NCBI GenBank assembly: GCA_021413905.1
Contig: JAIOPO010000005.1
Location: forward strand, 146,957-210,956
Source of the DNA: Candidatus Nomurabacteria bacterium
GTDB taxonomy: Bacteria > Patescibacteriota > Minisyncoccia > Phycocordibacterales > UBA9973
DNA length: 64,000 nt
Reading direction: 5' to 3'
Position numbers and translations under genes: made by a program. The notes beneath the pieces were generated by a model. The model searched no databases, was not told the DNA's origin, and saw nothing but the letters and a program-made list of their open reading frames with translations. Below, piece after piece: positions 9,162-61,657 of the stretch (position 1 is the first letter of the stretch; the number at the start of each line of letters is the position of its first letter).

Positions 9162-9264
9162 ATGTGACCTTTCCTTAAAAGGTATTCTTATTTATAACAA
9201 TTTTTTATTCATTAGTCCAGTAAATTTTAAACACTAAAAATAATGAAATTATTGGTATTAATTG

Positions 9265-9348
9265 TGCGCAGGGGGAGATTTGAACTCCCACAAGATTACT
9301 CCTGCTACCACCTCAAGGTAGTGCGTCTACCAATTTCGCCACCTGCGC
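9265..9348 (-). tRNA. tRNA-Leu (anticodon GAG) with a long variable arm.
   Basis: The minus-strand read is GCGCAGGTGGCGAAATTGGTAGACGCACTACCTTGAGGTGGTAGCAGGAGTAATCTTGTGGGAGTTCAAATCTCCCCCTGCGCA. The anticodon loop is TTGAGGT, and the variable arm is of the Leu type. Confidence 0.85.
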
Positions 9349-10769: not shown

Positions 10770-10845
10770 GCGCGGTTAGCTCAGTTGGTAGAGCAACCCG
10801 TTTACACCGGGAAGGTCGCAGGTTCGAGTCCTGCACCGCGCACCA
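10770..10845 (+). tRNA. tRNA-Val (anticodon TAC), CCA encoded.
   Basis: GCGCGGTTAGCTCAGTTGGTAGAGCAACCCGTTTACACCGGGAAGGTCGCAGGTTCGAGTCCTGCACCGCGCACCA; the anticodon loop is TTTACAC. Confidence 0.85.
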
Positions 10846-10866
10846 CCCAGCCTAAAGCAGGGCCAT

Positions 10867-10941
10867 GCCTTCGTAGTTCAATGGATAGAACAGAGCTCTT
10901 CTAAGGCTTTGATGTAGGTTCGATTCCTACCGAAGGCACCA
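10867..10941 (+). tRNA. tRNA-Arg (anticodon TCT), CCA encoded.
   Basis: GCCTTCGTAGTTCAATGGATAGAACAGAGCTCTTCTAAGGCTTTGATGTAGGTTCGATTCCTACCGAAGGCACCA; the anticodon loop is CTTCTAA. Confidence 0.8.
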
Positions 10942-11372: not shown

Positions 11373-12779
11373 CTACCTATGATTAATTGAAATTGAACGA
11401 TTCGTATTCTGAATTTCTTTTAACAACCTATCAAGCATATATTTTGTATTGTGTTCAAAATCTTTATCCGTACTTACAGGAATATCAATATTAATTTCTT
11501 TACCTTGGTTCAGATAGTTTACCTTTTTGTTTTTTAAATCAAAAGATACCACTACATCACTTATGCTTTCTTTACTAAGAGACGCATATGCTTTACTTAT
11601 ATTATCTTCCGTAAGAATTTCAGAAAATGCATTTAAATTCTCATCGGATTTCCTTCCTATAAATTTTTCATTCTTGAAAAAAATTGAAAACAGTATATTT
11701 TTATATTTATCACTATGTGATGAGCCGTAAAGTATCTCTATTTCATCTTTTGGAACACTTGGATTTGAAGTAACTTCCCTTACTTGCATAAGTGTCGGAT
11801 GAGAGTACGACATAGTCATTATAAAATCGGTAATGTCTTTCTTTGCAAGATTAATGTTTTCCTTTGTCTCTTCTTTGTTTAAAGTATGATTCTCAACTTT
11901 AGTTAAATCATCGTGTCCCATTAATTGATTTTCTAAAAATTGTTCTTCTAGTTTAATTTTTAATTTCGCAAGAACCTCTTTACTGATGTGCCTATTTTCA
12001 CCAAGTTCATTAACCCAATCAATACTTAAGTCACTGTCAAAAAAGCTATCAAGATATTTGAAGTCTATTTCTTCAATTGGTTTTGTTATCTCTTCTAATA
12101 ACTTATTTTCGGTAGAATTTTTATCCAGATATTCCTTATTTTCAACAAAATTCTGCATTCTATCATCAAGTTGTGTGTCTTCTTTGGATACTTCTTTTTT
12201 ACCAAGAGTAATTGCTTCTCTCCAAAATTTAGATCTCATTTTACCCAAAGTAAGAACATCTATATCTAAATCTATACTTTTCTCAAAATCATAATGATAT
12301 ATAGAGTTACCAGAATTTATTACGCTAGATACATCAACTCCCATGCTCTCCAGTATTGCCATTGCTTTTAAATTATTTAAGGTAACTTGGTAACTCCCAG
12401 TACGATAACTTTCATTTATTGGAACAAGTGATTCCAGATATTTCATATCTTTAAGAAGTCGAAATACGCAATCTTTCAATTCTTGCTTTTTACTTTCATT
12501 AAAATCAGTCGTTTCAATTCTATTTAAATAAATATTTGCTTCGTTATGTATAGTTTCAAGAGCTGAATTTAATTGACCTTCTTTTAAATTTTGCTCAAAA
12601 ATTGAATAGGCAGGATTTAAAAAATTTCGCTGTATAGCATGAGCTTCTTGATACTCCTTCGTTTCTTTTTCTATTTCTAAATTCTCGACTGCTCTCTGAG
12701 GGTTCTCTTTTCGAGTTTTCTTCAAATCTTTCGCAAGATTGTCACGATATTCCGATGAATTAAAATTTGGTTTTTCCAT
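11373..12779 (-). CDS. Hypothetical acidic protein, 468 aa, no recognisable domain.
   Basis: Long ORF with a Lys/Glu-rich low-complexity composition. It is preceded by a copy of the structured leader RNA (12812-12975). Confidence 0.55.
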   Translation of the reverse strand: MEKPNFNSSEYRDNLAKDLKKTRKENPQRAVENLEIEKETKEYQEAHAIQRNFLNPAYSIFEQNLKEGQLNSALETIHNEANIYLNRIETTDFNESKKQELKDCVFRLLKDMKYLESLVPINESYRTGSYQVTLNNLKAMAILESMGVDVSSVINSGNSIYHYDFEKSIDLDIDVLTLGKMRSKFWREAITLGKKEVSKEDTQLDDRMQNFVENKEYLDKNSTENKLLEEITKPIEEIDFKYLDSFFDSDLSIDWVNELGENRHISKEVLAKLKIKLEEQFLENQLMGHDDLTKVENHTLNKEETKENINLAKKDITDFIMTMSYSHPTLMQVREVTSNPSVPKDEIEILYGSSHSDKYKNILFSIFFKNEKFIGRKSDENLNAFSEILTEDNISKAYASLSKESISDVVVSFDLKNKKVNYLNQGKEINIDIPVSTDKDFEHNTKYMLDRLLKEIQNTNRSISINHR

Positions 12780-12811
12780 AAACTTTGTTGGGTTTTATTA
12801 TGGTGCTGGGA

Positions 12812-12975
12812 AGACAAAAAGCTCCTAGCCAGCGATAGTCCGAAGACTACCCGTAACCGTTTCCAGCTACGACCCAACAAAGGTGAACTCTGACTAGGAG
12901 TTCTTTACCTTTGTTGGGATTCATGTGACCATACCATTTTGACTATAAAAAACTACAGATAAAATGGGTTAGGTC
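12812..12975 (-). ncRNA. Copy 4, diverged, of a novel structured leader RNA motif (see findings); it ends in an intrinsic terminator immediately upstream of the 11373-12779 gene.
   Basis: The minus-strand read is GACCUAACCC...GGUAUGGUC...[cccaacaaaggt...AAAGAACUCCUAGUCAGAGUU...acctttgttggg] UCGUAGCUG-GAAA-CGGUUAC [tagtc-UUCG-gacta] ...GCUGGCUAGGAGCuuuuu. It is co-linear with copies at 27789, 39286 and 58546 and shows compensatory stem changes. Confidence 0.55.
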
Positions 12976-13140
12976 TTATTATTAAATTGACTCTTTAAGA
13001 GTAGCATTTTTGACTAAAAAATGCTATCAACTTTTTGTTTTAAATTTCTAGCTCGCCCCGCCAAAAAATCCGAAAGAGAGTCCGCATTTGCATTAGCGGT
13101 CCCCGCACTTTCCATTCTTGGAAAAGCTCTGTGCTTCGCA

Positions 13141-15703: not shown

Positions 15704-15964
15704 ATGTACTACTTTTATGTATTAAGATTTCATAAAAATAAAAAACTATATTATGGTTTTACAAATGATTTAAAGCGCAGAATAAAAGAACATAGAGCTG
15801 GAAATTCTGATTTTAGTTCTAAAAATGGAATATTTGACTTAATCTTCTATGAAGCTTATATTAGTAAAGAGGATGCTAGAGAAGCAGAAAAATATTTCAA
15901 AACAGGACATGGAAGAGAGGTTTTGAAAAATAAATTGAAAAATTATTTTGGAGGCGTCGCATAG
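15704..15964 (+). CDS. GIY-YIG nuclease superfamily protein (YhbQ/URI-like, about 86 aa); its 3' end overlaps the 5' end of tRNA-Ser.
   Basis: MYYFYVLRF...KLYYGFTNDLKRRIKEHRAG is a GIY-YIG core. The ATG at 15704 is preferred over the upstream TTG at 15656. The stop codon TAG lies inside GGAGGCGTCGCATAG, which is the start of the tRNA. Confidence 0.75.
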   Translation: MYYFYVLRFHKNKKLYYGFTNDLKRRIKEHRAGNSDFSSKNGIFDLIFYEAYISKEDAREAEKYFKTGHGREVLKNKLKNYFGGVA

Positions 15965-16036
15965 TGGTTTAGTGCACCTGTCTTGAAAACAGGAGTACCG
16001 CAAGGTACCGTGAGTTCGAATCTCACCGCCTCCGCC
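15950..16036 (+). tRNA. tRNA-Ser (anticodon TGA) with a long variable arm.
   Basis: GGAGGCGTCGCATAGTGGTTTAGTGCACCTGTCTTGAAAACAGGAGTACCGCAAGGTACCGTGAGTTCGAATCTCACCGCCTCCGCC; the anticodon loop is CTTGAAA. Confidence 0.85.
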
Positions 16037-20649: not shown

Positions 20650-21993
20650 TTATTTTTCTTCGTTTTCTTTTAGTAAAGTAATTTTCTTGTTGTTCAGTAC
20701 CAATCTCGTCCGCAGGTGACCCATCAGCTCGCGCTTCTCAAGCGGCGTACCCTCGCGGAGGACGTACTTCGCGTACTCTCTTGTATTCACATCGTCCTCG
20801 TTGATTGAATACTTCGGTGTACCTTTGGTCGCCAGTCGTTGTAGCCGGTTGAATCGTTTGATTTCTTCCTCCAGTTTCATTCGCATTCCCAGTTCATTGA
20901 TGCTCACTTGATCAATTACCTTGAACAGTTCCTCGATCAATTCTTCCTCGCGGATGTATTTGTTCTTGCAGTTGCGATCTCTTGCCTTCGAGCAGGAGTA
21001 GTAGACATACTTGGCCGTCGTCGTGTCTTTTAGCTCCTTGTACTTCTCCTGCGCCGTGATACCCGAGCCACATAGTCCGCAGGTAAACAATTTCGTGAAT
21101 GCGAATTCTCGATTTTCTCGCACAATCTTGTCTCGTTTCAGTTGCTCTTGTGCTTTCTCGTACAGTTCTTTCGTTATGATCGGCTCATGCTTCCCGTCGT
21201 ACCAATTGCCGGAGTCTCGGGGATACTCGAATGGTCCGTAGTAAATCGGCATGTTGAATATTCGGTACACTCCGCTCAGTGTCAGCGGCCGATTTCCTCT
21301 GGTGTGGAAATTCAGATCGAATCTGAGCCAGTTGTACACCTTTCGTCCGCTCCACCCCTCGTATGCCACTTTCTCGAACATTTTCCGGACGATCGGGGCG
21401 CGGTCGGGGTCGATTGCGATCTGGCATTTCCGGTCGAGCAGTTTCTGGTTCAGATACCCAAGCGGTGCCATGCCCGGCCAGAGTCCCATCTCAACCCTCG
21501 TTCGCAGTCCGCGCTTCACGTTAATGCCTCGGTTGTCGTTTTCGAGCTTCGCTTGCGAGCCGAGAATCATGAGCAGGAATTTCTCGTTCGGGTTGTTTCC
21601 GAACGTCTGCCCGAAGGTGCGTATCTGGTGCAATTTTCCCGCGTCCATGAGGTCGACAATTTTCCCGAGGTCACCCGCGTTTCTACTAATTCGATCCGGT
21701 GCCCATGTCAGGATGCCGTTGAACTTTCCGGCTCGCAGTTCGTCGATGATCTCGTTGAACACTGGCCGCTGACCCGTCTCTTTCGCGCTGTGACTCTCAC
21801 GCTTCATGGTCACAATCTCCAACCCCTCGCGCTCGGCCAGTTGGAGCATCTCCTTGATCTGGCTGTCGATGCTGAGCACCTGCCTCTCTTCCGACTCTGT
21901 CGATTTTCTCGCGTAGAGGCAGTATTTCATCTTGATCGGGATGACTACTTTGGCCGTCGTCCCTAATGGCGCTTGCGTTTGTGTATGGTTCAT
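20650..21993 (-). CDS. Large serine recombinase, integrase type, copy R1.
   Basis: YARKSTESEERQVLSIDSQ is the resolvase catalytic-Ser region. A recombinase domain follows, then the CGLCGSG...CSKARDRNC zinc ribbon and a C-terminal coiled-coil. The probable start is the M of MNHTQ... at about 21993, although the ORF is open to 22080. It is paralogous to 37815-39134 and 53409-54737. Confidence 0.85.
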   Translation of the reverse strand: MNHTQTQAPLGTTAKVVIPIKMKYCLYARKSTESEERQVLSIDSQIKEMLQLAEREGLEIVTMKRESHSAKETGQRPVFNEIIDELRAGKFNGILTWAPDRISRNAGDLGKIVDLMDAGKLHQIRTFGQTFGNNPNEKFLLMILGSQAKLENDNRGINVKRGLRTRVEMGLWPGMAPLGYLNQKLLDRKCQIAIDPDRAPIVRKMFEKVAYEGWSGRKVYNWLRFDLNFHTRGNRPLTLSGVYRIFNMPIYYGPFEYPRDSGNWYDGKHEPIITKELYEKAQEQLKRDKIVRENREFAFTKLFTCGLCGSGITAQEKYKELKDTTTAKYVYYSCSKARDRNCKNKYIREEELIEELFKVIDQVSINELGMRMKLEEEIKRFNRLQRLATKGTPKYSINEDDVNTREYAKYVLREGTPLEKRELMGHLRTRLVLNNKKITLLKENEEK

Positions 21994-22049
21994 ACATCTA
22001 CAGGAATGACGCAATACCGCTATGGAGTCCAGAGCGTCCCGAGTGGTAG

Positions 22050-22060
22050 GTGTTGGTAAC
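22050..22060. promoter_or_regulatory. Recombinase-associated conserved core GTGTTGGTAAC; putative attachment-site core at the R1 site.
   Basis: The same 11-mer recurs at 27696, 39189, 54793 and as GCTGTTGGTAAC at 58454. The left arm ...GATGACGCAA..AGAGCGTCCC is shared with the R3 site. Confidence 0.45.
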
Positions 22061-22083
22061 TTTTTTCTTGATATACTCACTAT

Positions 22084-27696: not shown

Positions 27697-27706
27697 TGTT
27701 GGTAAC
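27696..27706. promoter_or_regulatory. GTGTTGGTAAC core (putative att core) overlapping the TAG stop codon of the YibE/F gene; followed by the right arm CTCGCTACACAATAA.
   Basis: cactaGTGTTGGTAACctcgctacacaataatc; the right arm is similar to those at 39200 and 58466. Confidence 0.45.
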
Positions 27707-27762
27707 CTCGCTACACAATAATCCCGATCCGAGCTAAGATGGTCGAACCTCGAAAAATGAGG

Positions 27763-27768
27763 TATAAT
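27763..27768 (+). promoter_or_regulatory. -10 box TATAAT driving leader RNA copy 1.
   Basis: gaggTATAATttg lies 20 nt upstream of the GACC 5' motif. A -10 box is positioned equivalently before copies 2 and 3. Confidence 0.5.
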
Positions 27769-27788
27769 TTGTTCACAAATTAATAGGT

Positions 27789-27943
27789 GACCTAACCCCG
27801 AAAGGCCTTGTGGCTTCTCGGATATGGTCAAAAAACCGCTACAGTATAAAAGACTCCTCGTCAGAGTCACTGTAGCGGTCGTATCCGGAAACGGGTATGG
27901 GTTTAGCCGAAAGGCTGAATCGCGATGGCGAGGAGTCTTTTAT
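27789..27943 (+). ncRNA. Structured leader RNA copy 1 of the novel motif: promoter-proximal, covarying helices, GAAA tetraloop hairpins and a terminal intrinsic terminator.
   Basis: GACCUAACCCC[ccga..ucgg]GGAUAUGGUC AAAAAA [ccgctacagt AUAAAAGACUCCUCGUCAGAGUC actgtagcgg] UCGUAUCCG-GAAA-CGGGUAUGG [agcc-GAAA-ggct] ..GGCGAGGAGUCuuuu. The 3' segment CGAGGAGUC is complementary to GACUCCUCG in the apical loop. Confidence 0.6.
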
Positions 27944-27988
27944 CAACGAGACTCTTGGTTCATTCGTAAAACAAAACCGCTACAGTGT

Positions 27989-28459
27989 ATGAATGACCTC
28001 AACAAGTTTTTTGCCACCACAAGTGGCAAGTGTGCGTTCGCAATCATTTTTTTAATAATCGGTTTCTTCGGCGGTATGCAGTACAAGGCATACCAGATCA
28101 AGAGCGTCATCACTGATTCGCTCATGCCTGCGATTACGAGCAGTTTGGATGACGCGAGAACGAAAGCGAGCGACGCGAAAATCCGTGCAATCGTTTCGTC
28201 CGCTCGGGCACAAGGCGAACTGTATTACTCGTCTGGCGGCAACGATACAACCTACAAGGGAGTTTGTTCTGATTCTGAATTTACGCATTTGATTGATGGC
28301 GCGAATAGCACGCCGACCTGTAACGAAGCCAGAGACGGTTCCGCATGGGCAGTCGCCATTCCAATGAGCGACTCATCAACCTATGCTTGTTCTGATTCCA
28401 CTGGCGCATCCATCGTCATTAATTATCCGCTCGGTTCCGCTAGTTCTTGCACGAAGTAG
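27989..28459 (+). CDS. Pilin-like or pseudopilin-like small secreted protein with an atypical N-terminus.
   Basis: Hydrophobic N-terminal helix AFAIIFLIIGFFGG, then ...SSARAQGELYYSSGGN, which resembles the N-terminal helix of Gram-positive/CPR type IV pilins. The C-terminal Cys pairs fit, but the canonical G-FTLIE prepilin site is missing. The in-frame upstream extension from 27824 overlaps the RNA and was rejected. Confidence 0.4.
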   Translation: MNDLNKFFATTSGKCAFAIIFLIIGFFGGMQYKAYQIKSVITDSLMPAITSSLDDARTKASDAKIRAIVSSARAQGELYYSSGGNDTTYKGVCSDSEFTHLIDGANSTPTCNEARDGSAWAVAIPMSDSSTYACSDSTGASIVINYPLGSASSCTK

Positions 28460-29170: not shown

Positions 29171-29473
29171 ATGGTCTACGCAATTCTAATTTTCGCTCTC
29201 TACTTTCTTCCGTCCATAAACGCGTACTGGAAAAAGAAACGTAATAAAAGTGCAGTGCTGACGCTCAACTTCTTTCTCGGTTGGACTGTCATCGGGTGGA
29301 TCGTTGCGCTCATTTGGTCGTCCACCAATGACGCTCCGGCGACTGTTGTCATCGAAAAGAATACGCCAGTTAAAAGTACTTCAAACGAATTGGTCGAACT
29401 TCACGCGCTCAAAGAAAAAGGTGTCATTACGCACGAGGAGTTCGAGGCTGGTAAAAAGAAAATTCTAGGGTAA
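29171..29473 (+). CDS. SHOCT-domain membrane protein.
   Basis: N-terminal TM helices plus the C-terminal LKEKGVITHEEFEAGKKKILG SHOCT motif. Confidence 0.65.
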   Translation: MVYAILIFALYFLPSINAYWKKKRNKSAVLTLNFFLGWTVIGWIVALIWSSTNDAPATVVIEKNTPVKSTSNELVELHALKEKGVITHEEFEAGKKKILG

Positions 29474-29507
29474 TATCAAGAATATCTAAAGAAAAAGTAA
29501 AGAAAAT

Positions 29508-30191
29508 ATGAAGACCAAAATCGTAGCAATCTCAATACTCATACTGTCCATATTCGGAGCAACTCCTGCACTGGCTACTTTTGGTATTCAAACTAAGACG
29601 AGCCACTGTGTTGCTGGAGCGACTCCCGACACCGCTTGTTCACCGGGTGCGGTTCTCACTACCGATGCAAATATCGTTTGCGTTTCCGGCTACACAAAGA
29701 AAGTCAGAGACGTTACGACTGCAACCAAGAAAAAGGTGTTCAAGGAATACGGACTCGCATGGAGTACTCGCTCGAATTATGAAGTCGATCACATCATCTC
29801 GCTTGAACTCGGCGGTTCAAATGACATTTCAAATCTCTTTCCAGAGTCGTACACTATATCGAACGGCGCACGCGTGAAAGACACTCTCGAAAACTATCTC
29901 CATTCCCAAGTCTGCTCTGGTGCGATCTCACTCACCGGCGCTCAAAAAGCAATCTCCGGCGATTGGACTGTTGCATACCAAAATTGGAAGAACCCGAAGT
30001 CTGCCGCGAAAACAGTGCAGACAAAATCGACCCAGACGACTATGCCATCCACCGATCCTGCCGTAAAGAAAAGTACCTCCGGTATCTGTCATGCAAGAGG
30101 TACGCGCTACTATGCTTCAACGACTCACTTCACATCCTACACCACCGTCCAAGCTTGCCTAGACAGCAGAGGACGGCTACCATTGAACTAG
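29508..30191 (+). CDS. Secreted HNH endonuclease-domain protein.
   Basis: Signal peptide MKTKIVAISILILSIFGATPALA; the HNH motif is YEVDHIISLELGGSNDISNLFPE. Confidence 0.55.
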   Translation: MKTKIVAISILILSIFGATPALATFGIQTKTSHCVAGATPDTACSPGAVLTTDANIVCVSGYTKKVRDVTTATKKKVFKEYGLAWSTRSNYEVDHIISLELGGSNDISNLFPESYTISNGARVKDTLENYLHSQVCSGAISLTGAQKAISGDWTVAYQNWKNPKSAAKTVQTKSTQTTMPSTDPAVKKSTSGICHARGTRYYASTTHFTSYTTVQACLDSRGRLPLN

Positions 30192-30739: not shown

Positions 30740-32194
30740 TTAACCAAACAACAACCCCGGCTTCTTGCCGTATTTTTCAATAATCTGAATCATGGAGATG
30801 GAGAAAGCGTCCACGAGGTCGTCATGGTTCTCCTTGCCGAAGCCGACAAGTTCGTCAATGAGTTCACCGCAACCCTCATTGTAAAAGAAAACCTGCTTTT
30901 TCTTGATCGGCACCGCCGCGATTCGCAGACGCGACGCCTTGTCGGTGACACTCGGCACGCCAATGATGTCGTGGCTCTCCTGCATAAGCTGGACGATGGC
31001 TTCTTGCATGCCGTTGTTTTCCATGAATACTTTGACGGGTACTTTGTTTACCTGCTCCGCGGCAATGGAGTTTTTTAGATGTTCGAGAAGTTCCTTTACT
31101 CCGACTTTCGTATGGAACGGATATGGCTGAACGTACACGCGGAGGTTGTCGCCTCGGTTGTAAACATAGAGAACAACAAAGGCCGGAAAGTCAGCACTCT
31201 CTTTTTGCGAGATGGCGAGGTCTACGCCGATACAGATGCGATCCGGCTTTCCTTTTGGAAGCTCATCGTAGTACTGGATGTCATCAAGCGTTACAATCTG
31301 TTCCTCGCTCGCGACAATCTTCAGCATGTACTCACGCAACCATGCGATTTCATCCATCGTCTTTTCATGCTCGGCTTCAATCGACTCCGGCGTTGGATAT
31401 TTACTCGGCCATAACGGAACGCCTTTCGCATCGACGATTGGGTATTCGCGAAAAACAGGGTTCATACTTTTCAGTTCGCCCCGCTCAATTTTCTTTTCGA
31501 GCCGTCTGAGCACGGAGTCCTCGTGAAGCAAGTTACCGACGGCTATAATACGAGTCTTTTTCGTACCGGCAGGTATTACGTCTCCTGTCAGCCAGTTGAA
31601 CGTCTTGTTACGACCCTCTCTCGTTCGCACCGAATCCAAGTCCTCGATGTCGTCAAGGATGATGAGGTCGGGGCGGTGTTGGTTGTGCCTTGCACCGCGA
31701 ATACTTTGTTCGGTCGAACAGATCATGATCTTCACATTCAGTTTCTTTATGATTATCGCCGTCGCGTTGCCGAGACTGTTCCGCTCTTCCTCAAATGGTC
31801 CTAAGTCTTTTTTCAGAAGCTCGTTGTGCAAAAGTTGCTCCTTTATATTCGACAAGTGTTGTCGGGCTTTCTGCTCGGTCTGACCGCACAAGACAATGAA
31901 CTTTTTCTGCTGTACGCCGAGTATCGACCACAGAACATATGCCGTCGAGACGAGCGTGGATTTTGCCGAGCCACGGAACGCAACAATGACGGCAAGCTTG
32001 ATCTTGTCGTCTTCAAGAATACGGAACATCTCCTCGTGAAAAGGCGCAGTCTCATACTCCATGTATTGAGACATGTATATCGGGAAGAAGAACTCGAAGC
32101 TGTTGCGGACGACTTCCTTGCGGAAGCGTTGATCCTTGAGTATCTTGCCGAAGATGTCGTCCGAGCTATTCTCTTTTTTGCGTTTTTTTGACAT
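30740..32194 (-). CDS. Phage terminase large subunit-like protein (TerL), module A.
   Basis: Walker A AFRGSAKST and Walker B LIILDDIE. The C-terminal RNaseH-like nuclease Asp residues are present at ICIGVDLAISQ and HDDLVDAF. It is paralogous to 40449-42047. Confidence 0.65.
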   Translation of the reverse strand: MSKKRKKENSSDDIFGKILKDQRFRKEVVRNSFEFFFPIYMSQYMEYETAPFHEEMFRILEDDKIKLAVIVAFRGSAKSTLVSTAYVLWSILGVQQKKFIVLCGQTEQKARQHLSNIKEQLLHNELLKKDLGPFEEERNSLGNATAIIIKKLNVKIMICSTEQSIRGARHNQHRPDLIILDDIEDLDSVRTREGRNKTFNWLTGDVIPAGTKKTRIIAVGNLLHEDSVLRRLEKKIERGELKSMNPVFREYPIVDAKGVPLWPSKYPTPESIEAEHEKTMDEIAWLREYMLKIVASEEQIVTLDDIQYYDELPKGKPDRICIGVDLAISQKESADFPAFVVLYVYNRGDNLRVYVQPYPFHTKVGVKELLEHLKNSIAAEQVNKVPVKVFMENNGMQEAIVQLMQESHDIIGVPSVTDKASRLRIAAVPIKKKQVFFYNEGCGELIDELVGFGKENHDDLVDAFSISMIQIIEKYGKKPGLLFG

Positions 32195-32591
32195 GGTTTC
32201 TAATCGACGAGAGCTTCAACGCCGCCTTTATTTGCTTCCGTTCCTCCTTAGTGAGTGCTTCTTCCTCCGCAAGTCCTTTCACTTCGAGCGTGTCGCCGTA
32301 GCGATCGCTGTGCGTCTTCAGATACAAAGCAATAGCCTTAAACTCCTTGTCGCCGATGAGCGAGAAGAGCTGGGTTTCCGCGATGTCGCACATGAAATTG
32401 CGGCCTTCTTCAAGCGCGGCATCCATCGCTTTCTCGAAGGACTTCTTCTCCTTGACCCATCGGTAAATGGTCGCGCGGGAGAGCTTCACCTTTTGGCACG
32501 CCTGCTCTATCACCGGCGTGCGTTTCAGTTGCTCGATGAACGCCTCCTTGAGCGCATCCTGCCGAGCTTTAATTGAATCTTTCCTACTCAT
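32166..32591 (-). CDS. Small HTH protein, putative terminase small subunit, module A.
   Basis: HTH KLSRATIYRWVKE; it overlaps the TerL start and is paralogous to 42028-42423. Confidence 0.45.
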   Translation of the reverse strand: MSRKDSIKARQDALKEAFIEQLKRTPVIEQACQKVKLSRATIYRWVKEKKSFEKAMDAALEEGRNFMCDIAETQLFSLIGDKEFKAIALYLKTHSDRYGDTLEVKGLAEEEALTKEERKQIKAALKLSSIRNHVKKTQKRE

Positions 32592-33348
32592 ATATTTTTT
32601 CGACTTTTAGCTTGGTAAGTTTTTCCCATCGGTCGATGATGGTCTGGCAGTACTCGGTGTCCATCTCGACTCCGATACAGATGCGCTTCGTCTGCTCGCA
32701 GGCAAGGAGCGTCGTGCCACTTCCGAGGAAGCCATCGAACACGACATCGCCGATGCGCGTGCTGTTGAGTACGAGTTGGCGTATTAATCCAATTGGCTTC
32801 GTCGATGGATGCCAAGGACTGCGGTTCGGTCGCGGATGCACGATGACGCTCTTGTCTTTCGATTTGAGAAATTCGTGCGTGCCGTACCATCCGTAGGCGA
32901 TCAGTTCGTGTTGCGGTGCGTAGTCCATGCGACCGATGACGGCATGCGTTTTGACCCAGATGAGCAGTTGCGTGAACTTCATTCCGGCGGCAAGCATGCC
33001 GTTACGAAGCGCGAATATCATCTTGTCGCAGTTGAAGATGTAGAAGGCGTTCTTGCGTTCGAGATGCGGTCGAATTGCTTCGATCCAGTCACGAGAGAAT
33101 GCCTCATATTCGGCATCACTCTGCAAATGATCATTCGCGATTGTCTTGTCTTTGAGCAAAGGCTTGAGAGCTTTCTTACTTTCAGTCAGATTCACACCGT
33201 ATGGCGGATCTGTAATCACTGCCTTGATCTTCCTGTTAGCGACGAGTCTCGCGACCATGTCCTTGTTTCGGGAGTCCGCACAGAGAAGTAAGTGATTTCC
33301 GAGGCGAAAGGTATCGCCGTATTTAATTGAGTTTTGTGATTGGGTCAT
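32584..33348 (-). CDS. DNA methyltransferase (N6-adenine / N4-cytosine, beta class).
   Basis: Motif IV VITDPPYG precedes motif I DGFLGSGTT. It is paralogous to 62235-62984. Confidence 0.85.
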   Translation of the reverse strand: MTQSQNSIKYGDTFRLGNHLLLCADSRNKDMVARLVANRKIKAVITDPPYGVNLTESKKALKPLLKDKTIANDHLQSDAEYEAFSRDWIEAIRPHLERKNAFYIFNCDKMIFALRNGMLAAGMKFTQLLIWVKTHAVIGRMDYAPQHELIAYGWYGTHEFLKSKDKSVIVHPRPNRSPWHPSTKPIGLIRQLVLNSTRIGDVVFDGFLGSGTTLLACEQTKRICIGVEMDTEYCQTIIDRWEKLTKLKVEKIYE

Positions 33349-34648
33349 TGGATATTTTCTTAAATCTGTTAATGATTACTTGGCAGAACACGGGATCCCA
33401 CTCGCAGACGTACGCCGTGCGATTGAGCTGTTCGCATGCCGACAGCATGCTTCCCGAACCGGCCGTCATGTCGAGAACGATGTCGCCGGGCTTTGTACAC
33501 CTACGCAAAATTTTCTCGTGAATTGAGGGCGATTTTTGGGTCGGGTGTTCCATCTCACTTCCGGCCATACGCTTGACCATCCAGATATTGAGCAAGTCGA
33601 GGATGTCTTCGATGAGACGGTTGCCGGTACTGACTTCTTTGTTCTGAACCTCGTTGTAGTTCTTGACCTTGTCCGAGAGGTATGGACGACCCATCGTGCC
33701 GTAGACGACGAATTCTGTTACTTTGTTGAAAGCGTTTTTAGGCGTGGGCGAGGCGTTGTCCTTAATCCAAATACAGAGACGCTTCGAGTCAATCTTCAAT
33801 TCCTTGAACACTGTCTGAAAGAGCCAGACGTAGCGTTCGTCGCACCACCATGCCTGATGGCAGTCCGGCTTTGAGACGGCGAGCGCGTTCTGCATGATGA
33901 CCTGCACGAATGCGCGGTACGCATCGTCCGTCATATTGTCTTTGGTTTTGCCGCCATACCCACCGTTCTTTTTGCCGACACCTTTGTCGTAACTGAGATC
34001 AATGTTGTAAGGTAAATCCGTATCGACGAGGTCTGCTCTCGCGTCTCCCATTAATATCTTTGCCGTCTCGGGGAGCGTTGCATCCCCACAGATTAATTTG
34101 TGGCGACCGAGTTGGAATATATCGCCCATCTGTATCTCCGTCTCTTTCGCTTTCTCGACTTCATCCTCCTCGTTGAAGTTTTCGTTTGCTTCGACTTCGA
34201 GGTTGTCGTCGAAGATGTTACTCAAATCCATTGAGTCGAATCCGGCATTCAAGAGTTCGCCGAGATCGAAGTCTCGGGCGAGAGCCTCCCAGTCCCAAGA
34301 AGCCCCCGACCTATTTGACGTAAGTAGGTAGTCTTTGAACTCTGCCTCTGTTAATTTACGATTCGGTACGCGCACTTCAATTTCTTCCTCGCCTCTGCCA
34401 AGCAGGGAGAGCGCGAGGACGCGCTGATTACCGGCGACGAGCGTGCCGTCCGTGTTGATACATGGCAGTTCTGCGACGTTGAATTTTTTGAGACTGCGCT
34501 TGAGTCCTTCGAGTTGAACGGAGGAAAGCGTACGCGGATTTTTTGAATATGGTACGAGCGAATCCACTTTTCGCTTTTCTGTGTGCCATTCTAATTTTTG
34601 TTGAGACATAGGCTGTTTACTTTTGTTTCTTATTAATAAAGAAGACAA
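33323..34648 (-). CDS. ParB-like nuclease N-terminal domain fused to a DNA methyltransferase.
   Basis: ParB/Srx-like VPYSKNPRTLS...GNQRVLAL. The MTase motifs are TDLPYN and LDMTAGSGSM. It is paralogous to 42410-43690 and 62971-63999. Confidence 0.8.
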   Translation of the reverse strand: MSSLLIRNKSKQPMSQQKLEWHTEKRKVDSLVPYSKNPRTLSSVQLEGLKRSLKKFNVAELPCINTDGTLVAGNQRVLALSLLGRGEEEIEVRVPNRKLTEAEFKDYLLTSNRSGASWDWEALARDFDLGELLNAGFDSMDLSNIFDDNLEVEANENFNEEDEVEKAKETEIQMGDIFQLGRHKLICGDATLPETAKILMGDARADLVDTDLPYNIDLSYDKGVGKKNGGYGGKTKDNMTDDAYRAFVQVIMQNALAVSKPDCHQAWWCDERYVWLFQTVFKELKIDSKRLCIWIKDNASPTPKNAFNKVTEFVVYGTMGRPYLSDKVKNYNEVQNKEVSTGNRLIEDILDLLNIWMVKRMAGSEMEHPTQKSPSIHEKILRRCTKPGDIVLDMTAGSGSMLSACEQLNRTAYVCEWDPVFCQVIINRFKKISNDPITKLN

Positions 34649-37390: not shown

Positions 37391-37822
37391 ATGAATAAGA
37401 AAAACGTATACAAAGATAAGGACGGACGGGATATATTTCAAGTTAATACGATTTTTAATGTGCGTATTGAAAAAACATATTTACATCCCGAATATGATTT
37501 AACTGCTGACACAAATGAAATGACTGACACGGGACTTATGATTGTCTTCAAGCTTGAATCAAAAAACACCACTCTTCCATCATTTGTAGGACGATGGGAT
37601 CATAAACAAGGAGTACTCGATATAGATATATTCAAAGTTAGTAGAAAGATTGTAACCGACTTTCGTGCTGGTAAAAACAACTATGGTGGACATCACCCTT
37701 TACTAATTTCAGAAAGTCCTCGTTTGTTTGCAATAGATATAAATATACCTAAGGGGAAAATAATAGAAGGCGCAATGACTTTTAATATTGGTCACGGACA
37801 TGCTCCTATATTATTTAACTAG
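37391..37822 (+). CDS. Hypothetical protein of 143 aa.
   Basis: ORF only. Confidence 0.35.
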   Translation: MNKKNVYKDKDGRDIFQVNTIFNVRIEKTYLHPEYDLTADTNEMTDTGLMIVFKLESKNTTLPSFVGRWDHKQGVLDIDIFKVSRKIVTDFRAGKNNYGGHHPLLISESPRLFAIDINIPKGKIIEGAMTFNIGHGHAPILFN

Positions 37823-39134
37823 TAAGACTAAGCTTCTTATTCGCCAAACATATCTTACTCTTCAAGCAACCCAACAACTCTCTTTTTTCAATATCAGATC
37901 CTTCTTTTAAAATAAATTTTGCGTATCCTTGTATATCTACATTTGAAACATTAATTTTTTCTTTGGTTCCTAGTAGGAATCTTTGAAATTTAGTAAATCT
38001 TTCGATATCGTTTTTTATCTTTTCTTTGACTTCAAACTCATTGATCGAAATGTCTTCGAGCAGTAATTCAAATTGTTTGATTAACTCTTTCTCTTCAGTA
38101 TAGCCACATTTACAATGTTCGCCTTTGGCTTTAGTACATCCGTAATAAACATAACGATGCACATTTCCATTTTGTTGCTTTTTAAACTTTTCGTCAGCTG
38201 TAATTCCTGATCCGCAAAGCCCACAAGTCATCATTTTTGTAAAAGCGAATTCTTTGTTTTCAACTCTTAACACATTACTTTTTATTTGCTCTTGAACTAA
38301 ATCAAACAATTCTTTTGTAATTAACGGTTCATGTTTTCCTGTATACCAATTACCTGATTTTTTTGGATATTCAAAAACTCCGTAATAGAAAGGATTATCC
38401 AGTATCTTGTAGAGATTACCTAAACTTAAATGTTTTTTACCTACAGCTGTTCTGAAATTTAAATCAAATCTTAGCCAATTGTATATTTTTCTCCCACTAC
38501 ATTTTTCATATGCAACTTTTTCAAACATCTTTTTAATAGTTGACGCTCTTTCAGGATCAATTAACACCTCGCATTTTCTATCTGTCATTTTTTGATTTAA
38601 ATAACCAGTAGGAGCTACTCCAGGTCTTAGCCCCATTTCGGCTCTCGTTCGTAATCCTCTTTTTACATTTACACTTTTATTATCGTTTTCTAGTTTTGCT
38701 TGCGAACACAAAATCATTAAAAGAAATTTTTCATTTGGTGAATTCTTAAAATGTTGCCCATAAGTTCTAATTTCTAAAAGAAATTGCTGATCCATTAAAT
38801 CTACAATACTTCCTAAGTCACCAGCATTTCTACTTAATCTGTCGGGTGCCCAAGTTAGAATTCCATTAAACCTACCATGTCGCACATCTTCTAATATTTC
38901 TTTATATACAGGTCTTTGTCCTGACTCTTTGGCTGAATGTGATTCTCTTCTGATTTCAACAACATCGAGACCTTCTTTTTCAGCTAAACTAAGCATTTCT
39001 TTAACTTGCGAATCAATAGATAAAACTTGACGTTCTTCTGATTCAGTCGATTTTCTAGCATACAGTACGTATTTAATTTTTTGTATTGGTGCAAGAATTT
39101 CTTTTCCAATACGTGCTGACATATATGTTTCCAT
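37815..39134 (-). CDS. Large serine recombinase, integrase type, copy R2.
   Basis: IKYVLYARKSTESEERQVLSIDSQ, the CGLCGSG...C zinc ribbon, and roughly 65-70 percent identity by eye to R1 and R3. Confidence 0.85.
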   Translation of the reverse strand: METYMSARIGKEILAPIQKIKYVLYARKSTESEERQVLSIDSQVKEMLSLAEKEGLDVVEIRRESHSAKESGQRPVYKEILEDVRHGRFNGILTWAPDRLSRNAGDLGSIVDLMDQQFLLEIRTYGQHFKNSPNEKFLLMILCSQAKLENDNKSVNVKRGLRTRAEMGLRPGVAPTGYLNQKMTDRKCEVLIDPERASTIKKMFEKVAYEKCSGRKIYNWLRFDLNFRTAVGKKHLSLGNLYKILDNPFYYGVFEYPKKSGNWYTGKHEPLITKELFDLVQEQIKSNVLRVENKEFAFTKMMTCGLCGSGITADEKFKKQQNGNVHRYVYYGCTKAKGEHCKCGYTEEKELIKQFELLLEDISINEFEVKEKIKNDIERFTKFQRFLLGTKEKINVSNVDIQGYAKFILKEGSDIEKRELLGCLKSKICLANKKLSLTS

Positions 39135-39188: not shown

Positions 39189-39199
39189 GTGTTGGTAAC
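39189..39199. promoter_or_regulatory. GTGTTGGTAAC core 55 nt upstream of R2, flanked on the right by the arm TTCGCTTAACAAAAATA and leader RNA copy 2.
   Basis: ggcaacGTGTTGGTAACttcgcttaacaaaaatag. Confidence 0.45.
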
Positions 39200-39285
39200 T
39201 TCGCTTAACAAAAATAGTTATATGCGATAGGATTGATGGATTAATACAGACATATGCTGTATTATGTATATATAATTTAATAACC

Positions 39286-39432
39286 GACCTAACCCCTAAA
39301 AGCCTTTGGTTTATAGGATATGGTCAAAATCCTTCCCAGTAAAAAACTCCTCGTCAGAGTTACCTGGGAAGGTCGTATCTGGAAACAGATACGGATCACC
39401 GAAAGGTGGTCGCTGACGGGGAGCTTTTTGTT
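39286..39432 (+). ncRNA. Structured leader RNA copy 2 of the novel motif.
   Basis: GACCUAACCCC[ccua..uagg]GGAUAUGGUC AAAA [ccttcccagt AAAAAACUCCUCGUCAGAGUU acctgggaagg] UCGUAUCUG-GAAA-CAGAUACGG [cacc-GAAA-ggtg] GCUGACGGGGAGCuuuuu. A -10 box TATAAT is at 39271. Confidence 0.6.
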
Positions 39433-39461
39433 TCTCGTCAAATTAAAACCTTCCCAGTTTT

Positions 39462-40448: not shown

Positions 40449-42047
40449 CTATCTTTTTCTCATCATCCTCATAAAATTCCGACGTTCATATTCACTTTCT
40501 AACATTAGAGCTACATCTACTTTCTTTTCTTCCTCTTTTCTCACTTCAGGATCCTGTATATCAGAAGCTTTAGGTATTGGTATGGAAGAAGGTATAACCA
40601 AACGATTCGGGTCTCTTTCTGCATCCATAACTGTATGCATTAGCATTGATAAAGCATCCAAGAGATCGTCATATTTTTCATAACCAAATCCATATATTTG
40701 GTTTTCTAATATAGGTATACCTTCTTTTGGAAATAATACTTTTCCTTCCAAAAAATAATTTGTAGTAGCCCTTAATCGTTCAGCCTTATCTTTTGAACCT
40801 GGATTATAAGGAATAACATCTATCCCTTTATCTTTGGCTTGTTGATGTATATAACCTTGCGCGCCAACTTTTTCAACAACCACCTTAGGTGTTAAATTAA
40901 CTGATTTGAAATAATTAACTTCATTTTCAATAAACTTAATTATCTGAGGAAATTCTATTCTTTTATTGAATATCTTAGGTCTGATATAGATTTTTATTTT
41001 ATCCTGATATCCAAAAACATCAGCATAAACTCCAGCAGTAAAATCATTTTTATTACTAGTACCCGTCGCAGGATCAATAGACATAATGGTAAAACGATAA
41101 TCGTTAGCATAATCTAGCGCCGGAATTTTGTCATATCTTTTAATTAATTCATTCCTAATAATCTGCGACTCCTCATTAATTGGATTCAACATAAACTCTC
41201 TTTGCCATGCATTTTCATCATTCATGACCTTAGTTCTTTTTTCCTGATCAATCAATTCTTGAGAATGAAACTTCTCTTTCCATAAAGGAATACCTTTATC
41301 ACCAAAGAAAGGAAATCTTACTGCTTTACCAAATATTTTATTATCCGCAATATCATTGCAAACCCTTATCAACACAGAATCTTGATGAAGTGGCGTACCA
41401 ACTAAAACCATTCTGGCATTTTGATCTCCTGCGGGCAAAACATCTCGCGTTAACCACCGATACATATTATCTCTTTTTTCTTGACTGTCGACTGTTTTAT
41501 CAGTTTCAATATCGTCTAAGATAAATAGTTGTGGTCGGTACTGATTGTATTTAGTACCGCGAATACTTTGTTCTGTTGATCCAATGCCAATTTTTGCTTC
41601 ATACTGAGGCAATATTAATGCTTCTGCGCCCCATTGTCCTTGTATTTCTTTAAAGGGTCCCATATCAGCTTTTAATCTAGAATTATTTTCAAGTTGAAAT
41701 TTAATATCCTGTAATTTTTCTCTAGCCTGTGAATTCGTTCCACCTAAAATCATTACATATTTTTTATTTTGACAACCTAAAATAGACCATATGACATAGC
41801 TCATAGTAATAATTGTTGTTTTTCCACTTCCACGGAATGCCATTATGACTAAATTAGTAAAATTGCTTTCGGTTAGATGAATTATTGATCTATGGAAATC
41901 AGCTGTCGGGTGTGATATGTATTCACTGAAGTAATAATGAAAAAACCAAAAATGACTTTTCTTTACTAATTCTAATCTAAATGCTCTATCATTGATCATT
42001 CTATCAATGATCTTTTTGTATTCCTTTTTAGTTATTTTCTTTTTCAT
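40449..42047 (-). CDS. Phage terminase large subunit-like protein (TerL), module B.
   Basis: Walker A AFRGSGKTT, Walker B LFILDDIE, and nuclease Asp residues at MSIDPATG and YDDLLDAL. Confidence 0.65.
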   Translation of the reverse strand: MKKKITKKEYKKIIDRMINDRAFRLELVKKSHFWFFHYYFSEYISHPTADFHRSIIHLTESNFTNLVIMAFRGSGKTTIITMSYVIWSILGCQNKKYVMILGGTNSQAREKLQDIKFQLENNSRLKADMGPFKEIQGQWGAEALILPQYEAKIGIGSTEQSIRGTKYNQYRPQLFILDDIETDKTVDSQEKRDNMYRWLTRDVLPAGDQNARMVLVGTPLHQDSVLIRVCNDIADNKIFGKAVRFPFFGDKGIPLWKEKFHSQELIDQEKRTKVMNDENAWQREFMLNPINEESQIIRNELIKRYDKIPALDYANDYRFTIMSIDPATGTSNKNDFTAGVYADVFGYQDKIKIYIRPKIFNKRIEFPQIIKFIENEVNYFKSVNLTPKVVVEKVGAQGYIHQQAKDKGIDVIPYNPGSKDKAERLRATTNYFLEGKVLFPKEGIPILENQIYGFGYEKYDDLLDALSMLMHTVMDAERDPNRLVIPSSIPIPKASDIQDPEVRKEEEKKVDVALMLESEYERRNFMRMMRKR

Positions 42048-42423
42048 TTTGAGGTAAAGCTAATAGTAATGCTTGTCGAACAAGTTTTTCTTGTTCGACA
42101 TTAAGTACAGGACTTTCATTTATTATTTTTCCGCTAACTTCGACACGTTCACGAAATTTAGGATTTCTATGTTTTAACCAAAATGAAATCGCTGACCAAT
42201 TCTTTTCACGAATAAGAACAAGTAATTGATTCTCACTCATGTCATTAACCAAGTCTTCACCTTCTTGCAAAGCTATTTCCATTTCCTTTCTAAAAACCTC
42301 ATCTTCTTTCCGCCAGCGATATACTGTATTTCTTGAAAGTCCGATCTGCTCACAAGAAACCTGAATTATTGGAATTTTTTTAAGTTTTTCCAAAAACTCG
42401 TCTTTCTTCCTAGTTTTTTTCAT
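42028..42423 (-). CDS. Small HTH protein, putative terminase small subunit, module B.
   Basis: HTH GLSRNTVYRWRKE. Confidence 0.45.
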   Translation of the reverse strand: MKKTRKKDEFLEKLKKIPIIQVSCEQIGLSRNTVYRWRKEDEVFRKEMEIALQEGEDLVNDMSENQLLVLIREKNWSAISFWLKHRNPKFRERVEVSGKIINESPVLNVEQEKLVRQALLLALPQNEKENN

Positions 42424-43690
42424 AGAATTTTTTTATTATCTTAGCTTTTCGACCAGTCAATTTTTCATATCTCCGTATTGCAAGGTCACAAAAAATTGGC
42501 TCAATTTCAAGTGAGTATACTTTGCGCCCCAATTGTTCGGCGCAGATCATCGTACTTGCAGATCCGGAGAAAGCATCAAAGATAATATCACCTGGCTTTG
42601 TGCAGCGCATAATAAACTTATGGTGCAATTCAGGATTCTTGCTCGTCGGGTGCTCCATTTGATTCGATGGAAGTCTTTTGGTCGCCCAAAGATTCGATAT
42701 GTCTTCAAGGAGTTGGTTGCCCGTGCCTAAATCTTTGTTTTGAATCTCATTTAGATTTTTCTGTAAGTCAGACAAATACGGTGAGCCTTTTGTGCCGTAA
42801 ACACAAAACTCTGTGCATTTATTAAATGCAACAGTAGGGGTCGGAGAAGAATTATTTTTTACCCAAACATTTAATCTTCTATTTTTAATCCCGAGTTCCA
42901 TATACAGAGTTTGGAAAACCCAAACCCATGCTTCGTCTGACCAAAATGCTACATGGATATCTTCGATTGAAACAGCGAGAGAAGACTGTAGTACTTTTCG
43001 GATAAACTCAACATATTCTTTAGGTGGTTGATTGTCGTCAAAAGAACCGCCGTAGTTGCTTTTATTGCCAACTCCTTTGTCATATGAAAGCCCGATATTA
43101 AAAGGTGGATCATTGTATATAGCTGTCGCCCTGTGTTCGCCGAATAATTTTTGCACAGCATGTATATCCGTAGAACTGGCGCAGAGCAATTTGTGATCTC
43201 CCATAACTATGAGATCACCCTTTTGCACGACAGGCTTCTTTATCTTTTTTAATTCTTTCGATACATCAAACTTGTCGTCTTTTGTATCCCTGTCTTCGTC
43301 CCAAGACTTTGCCAATTCTATTTGGTCAAATCCAATATCAGTCAGCAAATCTATTTCAAACGATTTTAACTTCTCAACTTGCCACTCCCCGTCATTTATA
43401 TTGGATTCTAAACCTATTTTTATTCTTTCTTCTTTTGTAAGTTTCCGATTTGGAACAAGTATATTAACTTCCTTAATACCAAGTTTCGTAAGAGCAGTTT
43501 TTCTTTGATTACCTGAAAGAATTGTATTGTCTGTGTCTATTACAATTGAAGCGTGAAATCCTCTTTGGTTAATTCTTTCCGTTAACTTTTCCAAGTCTTC
43601 CTTGCTAATTTTACGCGGATTTTCTTTCCACGTTAATAAATCTTTTACTTTTCTAACTTCTGCGCTCCAAAATAATTTGGATTTATTCAT
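42410..43690 (-). CDS. ParB-like domain fused to a DNA methyltransferase, module B.
   Basis: NDPPFN motif IV and FDAFSGSAST motif I; the N-terminus is ParB-like. Confidence 0.8.
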   Translation of the reverse strand: MNKSKLFWSAEVRKVKDLLTWKENPRKISKEDLEKLTERINQRGFHASIVIDTDNTILSGNQRKTALTKLGIKEVNILVPNRKLTKEERIKIGLESNINDGEWQVEKLKSFEIDLLTDIGFDQIELAKSWDEDRDTKDDKFDVSKELKKIKKPVVQKGDLIVMGDHKLLCASSTDIHAVQKLFGEHRATAIYNDPPFNIGLSYDKGVGNKSNYGGSFDDNQPPKEYVEFIRKVLQSSLAVSIEDIHVAFWSDEAWVWVFQTLYMELGIKNRRLNVWVKNNSSPTPTVAFNKCTEFCVYGTKGSPYLSDLQKNLNEIQNKDLGTGNQLLEDISNLWATKRLPSNQMEHPTSKNPELHHKFIMRCTKPGDIIFDAFSGSASTMICAEQLGRKVYSLEIEPIFCDLAIRRYEKLTGRKAKIIKKFYEKN

Positions 43691-45793: not shown

Positions 45794-45795
45794 AT

Positions 45796-46269: not shown

Positions 46270-46270
46270 G

Positions 46271-47062: not shown

Positions 47063-47110
47063 AATTTTTATTTCCTGTGAAAATTAGTACACTTTTGATA
47101 CAATAAACAA

Positions 47111-61656: not shown

Positions 61657-61657
61657 A

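Follow-up and report, generated by a model that had tools for sequence, protein, structure and literature searches.

What is the structured sequence that stands four times in a 64,000-nucleotide stretch of Candidatus Nomurabacteria DNA (the window hereafter; contig JAIOPO010000005.1 of assembly GCA_021413905.1, positions 146,957 to 210,956), and what might it do for the gene that follows it? An earlier note on this DNA had placed three copies on the plus strand (27789-27943, 39286-39432 and 58546-58688) and a fourth on the minus strand (12812-12975), and had taken them for an undescribed cis-regulatory RNA. Direct reading of the sequence and placement by Rfam confirmed these positions and strands. 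In the Rfam scan of the window all four copies are LOOT RNA (RF03000, gathering score 46.4 bits), with matches that take in model positions 1-121 of 121 in every copy. The Rfam part, which comprises helices P0, P1, P2a/P2b, P3 and P4, lies at 27789-27921 (+, 75.2 bits) in copy 1, 39286-39411 (+, 75.8 bits) in copy 2, 58547-58668 (+, 82.1 bits) in copy 3 and 12834-12975 (-, 76.7 bits) in copy 4. A relaxed Rfam scan of the window, with E up to 10, gave no family besides LOOT. The four repeats are members of an already catalogued RNA family and not a new class; they share with it helices P0, P1, P2, P3 and P4 as well as the lineages, Patescibacteria or Candidate Phyla Radiation (CPR), without any family-level difference. 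The note had itself named a hit to a known Rfam family as grounds for refutation, and with 75-82 bits against 46.4 the word "undescribed" therefore fails.

The name LOOT is made from OD1, OP11 and TM7. The motif is reportedly to be found in the supplement of Weinberg et al. 2017 (NAR 45:10811). It has been an orphan since 2017, is abundant in the poorly understood candidate-phyla bacteria, and has four copies in this 64-kb window. LOOT is used as an example in the Rfam 14 and Rfam 15 papers, the CaCoFold study remarked on 28 "cross-covariations" of its helices (PMC7657543), and the searchable literature assigns it no function. Its Rfam type is "Gene; sRNA" (small RNA), whereas the evidence presented here favours a cis leader. 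On balance we lean towards the view that LOOT is a cis-acting two-tier attenuator, i.e. the structured 5' leader of the next gene, which would act on both transcription termination and translation initiation. This turns a bare motif into a testable model with a pseudoknot-type terminator, downstream mimics, a start-codon mask and a position at the end of an island.

The architecture claimed earlier is borne out: 5' GACCUAACCC, P1, GG(A/U)AUGGUC, an A-rich linker, a P2 of 10-12 bp, P3 of the form CGUAnnnnGAAAnnnnUACG, P4 capped by GAAA in copies 1 and 2 and by UUCG in copies 3 and 4, and then a 3' segment complementary to the P2 apical region, followed by 4-5 U. We call the two strands of helix P2a X and X', the apical segment between them T5', and the 3' segment T3'; T5' with T3' makes helix T. 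In copy 1, P2 (27836-27878, +) is read from sequence, fold and alignment as X CCGCTACAGT (27836-27845), T5' GACTCCTCGTCA (27852-27863) and X' ACTGTAGCGG (27869-27878), and the T3' strand TGGCGAGGAGTC plus the U-run at 27938-27941 takes up 27926-27941. The corresponding elements of copy 2 (+) are X 39331-39340, T5' 39347-39357, X' 39362-39372, T3' CTGACGGGGAG 39413-39423 and the U-run 39425-39429; those of copy 3 (+) are X 58590-58599, T5' 58608-58618, X' 58622-58631 and T3' CCCGTGGCGGG plus U-run 58682-58686 at 58670-58686; those of copy 4 (-) are X 12908-12918, T5' 12890-12900, X' 12873-12883, T3' CTGGCTAGGAG 12822-12832 and the U-run 12816-12820. The P2 "apical loop" of the earlier note does pair with the 3' segment, but it can itself fold as a small hairpin, the P2b of the Rfam model. 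Against shuffled sequence, the folding z-scores of the four leaders range from -4.7 to -7.8.

A pattern scan with one genome per species found further homologues of this leader in related CPR genomes, with at least 117 loci, almost all of them in Patescibacteria (CPR) metagenome-assembled genomes (MAGs). Homologue counts and percentages refer to loci among the matches listed, and the set is biased to LOOTs resembling the window copies. Some pattern matches in MAGs labelled non-CPR (L004, L015, L030, L066) are without the P2a helix and were taken as false positives. In a structure alignment of 91 sequences, extended to the U-run, 89.8% of the cells of the consensus helices are paired, versus 68.6% in shuffles and at most 44% with the partners slid. 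Both sides change in 36 of the 47 consensus pairs, and the observed values were reached by 0 of 500 shuffles. The covarying structured RNA proposed from four copies is thus borne out in a wider alignment. The conserved nucleotides are largely accounted for by the helices, the GNRA loops and a receptor-like internal loop between P0 and P1, CCUAA(C/A)...(U/C)AUGG, in which CCUAA and AUGG are invariant. The 11-nt GAAA tetraloop receptor is CCUAAG...UAUGG, and the sequence of the P0/P1 loop, together with the GAAA loops of P3 and P4, suggests a variant of it. The flanking pair within this loop (58554 and 58577 in copy 3) shows non-Watson-Crick covariation, with A..C in 42-43 sequences, C..U in 43 and A..U never.

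No helix of LOOT RNA is better supported than helix T, which the Rfam model does not include. The loop-to-3' covariation noted earlier in the four copies holds in the 91 sequences: 99.9% of the cells of this helix are paired, and two-sided changes are seen at 7 of the 9 core pairs; one of them, for example, is GC in 35 sequences, AU in 25 and CG in 21. Two U.G wobbles are conserved in this helix. The local P2b hairpin, about 71% paired, uses nucleotides of helix T and is thus its competitor. In combination with P2a, helix T would give an H-type pseudoknot. A U-run stands 3' of T3', 26-42 nt past P3, in about 96 of 116 loci. With 9-12 bp, a mean duplex energy of -21 kcal/mol and 4-6 U behind it, helix T has the G+C-rich helix and U-run of an intrinsic terminator, but not its simple short-loop hairpin: X', P3 and P4 lie between the two T strands, which are separated by 60-70 nt. 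A simple consensus terminator scan of the window did not detect helix T, and a consensus promoter scan of the window gave background-level calls only. At the 5' side, the TATAAT boxes claimed 9-20 nt ahead of copies 1-3 are present at 27763-27768, 39271-39276 and 58521-58526 (+). Between the -10 box and P0, most LOOT loci carry a box ACAAYTNAATA, also outside the Rfam model, which is probably the 5' end of the transcript; it is found at 27775-27785 (copy 1, ACAAATTAATA), 39272-39282 and 58533-58543 on the plus strand and at 12979-12989 on the minus strand. No pairing partner for it better than those in shuffles was found in the spacer or the LOOT body. Further 5', at 27747-27768, there is a hairpin whose 3' strand runs into the -10 box (ACCTCgaaaaatGAGGTATAAT). 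Such a hairpin is also seen in L065, L073, L051, L067, L069, L075 and L099, where it covaries (ACCCT/AGGGT, GCAC/GTGC, ATAGC/GCTAT). It could serve to stop read-in transcription, be an operator, or extend the RNA at its 5' end.

Beyond what the earlier note had described, both variable 5' strands have a second copy downstream, one of which abuts the start codon. The second partner of T3' is a copy of T5' placed right after the U-run. The T3':T5' copy duplex reaches -10 kcal/mol or less in 71-82% of the loci versus 22-31% of shuffles (p about 1e-9), and the T5' copy holds both in loci with and in loci without a copy of X. Its pairs include 50 G.U versus 8 A.C, an excess which indicates pairing at the RNA level on this strand. 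In copy 1 the T5' copy is GAGACTCTT (27948-27956, +), paired with T3' in the minimum free energy (MFE) fold; it is GTTTCTCGTCA in copy 2 (39430-39440, +), and weak in copy 3 (about 58694-58705, +) and in copy 4 (about 12803-12815, -).

X, the 5' strand of P2a, is repeated just 5' of the downstream ATG in about 40-46% of loci, and in 4 of 4 window copies the repeat ends 1-2 nt 5' of it. The X copies are CCGCTACAGTG at 27977-27987 (+), 1 nt 5' of the ATG at 27989 (gene 27989-28459); CCTTCCCAGTT at 39449-39459 (+), 2 nt 5' of the ATG at 39462; CCTATCAAGCA at 58721-58731 (+), 1 nt 5' of the ATG at 58733 (gene 58733-59350); and CCCAACAAAGT at 12782-12792 (-), 2 nt 5' of the ATG at 12779 (gene 11373-12779). 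A match of at least 9.5 of 11 positions is found in 37 of 118 loci versus 1.9% of cross-locus controls, and the X':X copy duplex near the start codon reaches -10 kcal/mol or less in 46% of loci versus 4.9% of such controls (Mann-Whitney p = 7e-15). The X copy occurs in 14-20 independent X classes, and in 40 of 44 loci no more than about 6 nt separate the end of the 11-mer from the ATG. The remaining 55-60% or so of LOOT loci, without an X copy, are indistinguishable from control (p = 0.2), and no nearby trans target for X was found in them within 8-kb chunks. At no more than one mismatch, X falls into 49 classes (93 loci) versus 17 for T; X differs among all four window copies, and the T class is common to copies 1 and 2. 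Over all loci, P2a and X':X copy are about 92% Watson-Crick, with G.U (2%) no commoner than A.C (2%), unlike P3 and helix T, in which wobbles are many. As a rough figure, with the first ATG of each open reading frame (ORF) taken as its start, Shine-Dalgarno-like motifs precede about 7% of long background ORFs in the CPR loci. Such motifs being rare, structural access to the start region is a plausible control point. The idea that the X copy replaces a Shine-Dalgarno sequence was dropped, as these motifs are rare in all genes of the loci and their absence is uninformative.

How could these elements work together? Transcription would start from the -10 box 9-20 nt upstream. The conserved scaffold, made of the receptor-like P0/P1 loop and the GAAA- or UUCG-capped P3 and P4, would hold the two variable helices P2a (X:X') and T. 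Formation of helix T at the U-run would end transcription and leave, for most transcripts, a short RNA of about 140-165 nt. Read-through transcripts would reach the T5' copy after the U-run and, in all four window copies, the X copy before the AUG. Since second copies of T5' and X lie downstream, the 3' half of the RNA (X'-P3-P4-T3') can re-pair with them, and the translation start would then be buried. The outcome would be a short RNA and a long mRNA, the choice of conformer setting both termination and access to the start. The signal that makes this choice is more likely a protein, an RNA or a kinetic cue than a metabolite. The MFE folds of the window copies show all three conformers: native P2a/P2b plus the full T3':T5' copy hairpin in copy 1; X':X copy plus T3':T5' copy, with the start region buried, in copy 2, where the fold thus pairs X' with the X copy; helix T, lengthened by pairing of an A-run with the U-run, in copy 3; and native P2a/P2b with only a weak T3':T5' copy hairpin in copy 4. 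When P2a or X':X copy is forced, the energy difference averages +0.6 kcal/mol over 35 distinct leaders, so that the native and occluding conformers are predicted to be nearly isoenergetic. The 3' half folded alone forms X':X copy in 34 of the 35 leaders. The Rfam LOOT model ends after P4 and is without the T3' strand, the U-run, the 5' box, the downstream T5' and X copies and any annotation of context. As suggested by the leader model, this Rfam model and its sRNA classification may need revision.

A leader should belong to a gene, and the start of a co-oriented ORF is indeed found about 65-95 nt past P3 in most loci, with fixed distance and same orientation in about 88% of them. The earlier note had placed the U-run directly before a gene in each window copy; U-run and co-oriented gene are present, but the gene starts 45-60 nt past the U-run. 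Among the labels given to these genes, peptidoglycan (PG) binding is confirmed for copy 2 (PG_binding_1, PF01471, 39462-40427, +), whereas "pilin-like" and the others are without Pfam support. Between genomes, the homology of the leader often reaches no further than ATG -4 to +3, and the proteins encoded past this point are unrelated. The possibility that X class tracks gene family was rejected, because leaders of three X classes, with their respective matching X copies, stand before members of one protein family, and unrelated proteins follow leaders of one X class. The 101 downstream proteins include 32 unrelated Pfam families with at most 3 members each, and most have no domain. This cargo includes DNA methylases, nucleases, SHOCT or zinc-ribbon membrane proteins and PG-binding proteins. 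In locus L096, two 100% identical LOOT-plus-gene copies (2724 and 7057) stand 4.3 kb apart inside a 1.9-kb duplication, which may be recent or an assembly artefact.

Another point that goes beyond the earlier note is that LOOT is tied to integrative islands with a large serine recombinase. Three such recombinases are encoded on the minus strand of the window: A (20650-22080), B (37815-39134; Pfam Resolvase, Recombinase and Zn_ribbon_recom), which is divergent from LOOT copy 2, and C (53409-54737); A and C are homologues of B (phmmer E = 9e-181 and 3e-175, respectively). Exact GTTGGTAAC occurs 5 times in the window, always on the plus strand, and the flanks of the 10-bp core TGTTGGTAAC are swapped as expected for site-specific recombination at this core. 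The candidate attachment (att) core at 22051-22060 (site 22052), beside the 5' end of recombinase A, has a recombinase-type left flank and an unrelated right flank. The core at 27697-27706 (site 27698), 83 nt 5' of LOOT copy 1, has an unrelated left and a LOOT-type right flank. The one at 39190-39199 (site 39191), between recombinase B and LOOT copy 2, is recombinase-type on the left and LOOT-type on the right. At 54793-54802 (site 54794), 57 nt from the start of recombinase C, the left flank is recombinase-type and the right one unrelated, and at 58455-58464 (site 58456), 5' of LOOT copy 3, the left is unrelated and the right LOOT-type. These core positions and flank swaps place LOOT as the first transcription unit, about 90 nt inside the island end. 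Three of the four window copies are thus the first transcription unit in the att-proximal end of serine-recombinase integrative islands, where they lead variable cargo. The recombinases of units B and C start 57 nt from the core, and the recombinase promoter may therefore lie across the junction. The region 20650-64000 holds three tandem island units with one large serine recombinase each; their boundary is the invariant core, with flanks exchanged as would be expected of attL, attR and attP-like junctions.

The two-core pattern is also found in loci L007, L052, L065 and L069. An att-like core doublet with copies 11 bp apart (e.g. GTTGGCAACttGTTGGTAAC) is seen in L027, L099, L052 and L069. A large serine recombinase lies inside the 8-kb chunk in 45 of 111 loci, and in 37 of these it is upstream and divergent (binomial p = 3e-16); the distance between recombinase and LOOT ranges from 26 nt up to several kb. 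No recombinase is encoded near copy 4 or near many of the other loci, and proximity to one goes with a somewhat lower frequency of the X copy (odds ratio 0.36, p = 0.02). A recurrent synteny runs from a leftward recombinase over a rightward LOOT and 1-3 rightward cargo genes to leftward TerL, TerS and ParB-methyltransferase genes. Three units of this kind are present in the window. In our literature search, no paper was found that links large serine recombinases to CPR bacteria, nor one on an RNA partner of large serine recombinases.

Several points weigh against a two-tier attenuator. Rfam puts LOOT among sRNA genes. Our reading of promoter, termination and both isoforms comes from sequence, and so do the proposed masking of the start codon and the proposed direction of regulation. 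Helix T is no simple hairpin and, with 60-70 nt of structure enclosed, makes at best a putative intrinsic terminator. The T5' copy is transcribed past the U-run and therefore has no effect on the termination decision itself. The 55-60% of loci without an X copy imply that start-codon occlusion is not universal in the family. Counting the pseudoknot may make the native fold clearly stabler than the occluding one, and the start site would then normally be open. Finally, the near-pure Watson-Crick character of P2a and X':X copy is unexplained by simple selection on an RNA helix; it suggests an extra constraint or a copying mechanism such as quasipalindrome correction.

The layout of LOOT parallels that of leader-derived phage RNAs, which makes a specificity code acting in trans the main rival. 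LOOT would then be a leader-derived, specificity-coded antisense RNA, an immunity or incompatibility determinant of the mobile island, and the short RNA or a processed 3' half would pair, via X' and T3', with X/T5' copies on its own or incoming transcripts of the same code. We regard this as possible, though rather unlikely. Like the P4 CI RNA (seqA/seqB/seqC) and the P1/P7 C4 antisense RNA of the immI operon, LOOT is leader-encoded on a mobile element and has copies of its specificity segments both upstream and downstream in the transcript (X, X' and X copy; T5', T3' and T5' copy), the downstream X copy being at the translation start. The outcome, premature termination or blocked translation of the next gene, would also be shared. 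Details of a1/b1, a'/b' and a2/b2 of C4 were reportedly given by Citron and Schuster in 1990. As precedents, P4 CI RNA pairs with seqA and seqC, and IsrK of the Gifsy-1 prophage has a short and a long isoform (PMC4825925), and P1 C4 represses icd and ant of its own operon, with which it is co-transcribed (PMC8198154). IsrK resembles the LOOT model in that transcription from one promoter yields both a short RNA, by termination, and an mRNA, by read-through, in that alternative structures involving the leader set the translation start of the long form, and in being horizontally acquired; unlike LOOT, for which isoforms and trans action are at most predicted, it activates translation in trans and depends on Hfq. 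The position of the elements on integrative islands, the many discrete X classes and the differing X of the four co-resident window copies all fit a trans code, and the X classes would also explain the 28 cross-covariations of LOOT (PMC7657543). However, distinctness of X is statistically uninformative with four copies in one window, and the co-resident copies 1 and 2 share a T class. The native, pseudoknotted fold buries X' and T3' in helices, no processing site is known, and the terminator would be intrinsic and intramolecular. What LOOT precedes is a varied cargo rather than one conserved antirepressor, replication or key lytic gene. LOOT shows no homology in sequence or structure to P4 CI, C4 or IsrK, and C4-type families (e.g. 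RF01695) were not matched in the Rfam scans, whether run with the gathering threshold or relaxed to E up to 10. That LOOT is the identity, immunity or incompatibility RNA of an uncharacterised class of CPR serine-recombinase islands recombining at TGTTGGTAAC is doubtful, and we put it forward tentatively. If true, a fast-diversifying X code and a slower T code would silence transcripts of the same code and set cargo expression and tandem co-residence, and LOOT would stand beside the immunity RNAs P4 CI and P1 C4 as an analogue with a new structure, a pseudoknotted tetraloop-receptor scaffold. A specificity code, if it holds, would explain how mobile elements in reduced genomes regulate cargo or exclude one another.

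LOOT could also be an independent sRNA gene, transcribed from its own promoter to its own terminator, whose function has nothing to do with the gene next to it; it might, for instance, bind a protein or act as a sponge. The Rfam type, the promoter-like and terminator-like boundaries, the compact fold with tetraloop and receptor-like motif and the lack of an X copy in over half of the loci would suit such a gene; it is improbable in view of the co-oriented ORF at fixed distance in about 88% of loci, the T5' copy conserved downstream in both subgroups, the X copy abutting the ATG in 14-20 independent classes and the conservation of the leader right to the ATG across genomes. A small-molecule riboswitch, in which a ligand stabilises or blocks the P2b/T exchange, appears very unlikely. 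LOOT does share with riboswitch and attenuator platforms a complex conserved fold, a terminator-like expression platform and mutually exclusive pairings that decide termination and start-codon access. But the downstream proteins (methylases, nucleases, small membrane proteins, many without a Pfam domain) point to no single pathway or transport function, and this diversity argues against a metabolite riboswitch, as do the several copies per genome before unrelated genes and, in our estimation, the little conserved unpaired sequence left for a pocket. Neither a ligand nor a coherent regulon can be seen, the terminator helix spans a long range as part of a pseudoknot, and the sequestered region is a copy-specific sequence, as opposed to the Shine-Dalgarno element of riboswitch-type platforms. 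Of the attenuator-like or riboswitch-like leader proposed earlier, the promoter-like -10 box, the co-oriented gene and the terminator-like helix using the P2 apical region thus remain, whereas the small-molecule switch does not. It is likewise very unlikely that the conserved features act as DNA (att arm, protein-bound palindrome or single-stranded DNA structure), or that LOOT is a cofactor or guide RNA of the recombinase. The 37 loci with an upstream and divergent recombinase, the start of LOOT about 90 nt from the TGTTGGTAAC core and the strictly Watson-Crick repeats X, X' and X copy would agree with this. Orphan RNA motifs beside mobile-element genes, HEARO and IS605-orfB, were later shown to be guide RNAs, and the IS110 bridge RNA resembles LOOT in being non-coding and structured, in having variable segments and in its place next to a recombinase gene close to the element end. 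Here, in contrast, the neighbour is a large serine recombinase at variable distance, and neither copy 4 nor many of the other loci have one nearby. The frequency of the X copy is, if anything, lower close to the recombinase, and the recombination core is a separate sequence 5' of the RNA. The strand-specific G.U wobbles in helix T and T3':T5' copy, the GNRA/UUCG tetraloops and the non-Watson-Crick, receptor-type covariation point to RNA. Compared with 45 bp on each side of the core, X and T3' gave 6.8 and 6.4 matches of 11 versus 6.9 and 6.3 in controls, i.e. neither identity nor complementarity to core-flanking DNA above control, and bridge-RNA-like guiding of att flanks was rejected. Integron-like cassettes bounded by X repeats were rejected as well, no consistent extra X or X' copies being found around cargo genes.

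Regarding the content of the islands, the genes for ParB-N/N6_N4 methyltransferase (42410-43690), TerS (42028-42423) and TerL (40449-42047), assigned with PHROGs and Pfam, lie on the minus strand and are convergent on the cargo of copy 2; their synteny recurs in other genomes. In the window this block recurs on the minus strand at 30740-34648, 40449-43690 and 60157-63999. No portal or capsid genes were identified beside the Ter blocks, and the islands look phage-derived or satellite-like rather than like complete prophages. The core pattern gave 0 matches in IMG/VR, and a viral origin thus found no support there. Candidate defence or accessory cargo is present at 44975-48610 (+), with cyclase-like proteins (weak Guanylate_cyc) and a SIR2_2 protein (47630-48610), and at 29171-30191 (+), where 29171-29473 encodes a superinfection-immunity plus SHOCT protein and 29508-30191 an HNH-like one. 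Five tRNA genes, at 9089-9348 (-), 10770-10938 (+) and 15950-16034 (+), stand to the left of the array of islands, and the tRNA at 15950-16034 stands just 5' of the 1360-aa ORF that precedes recombinase A.

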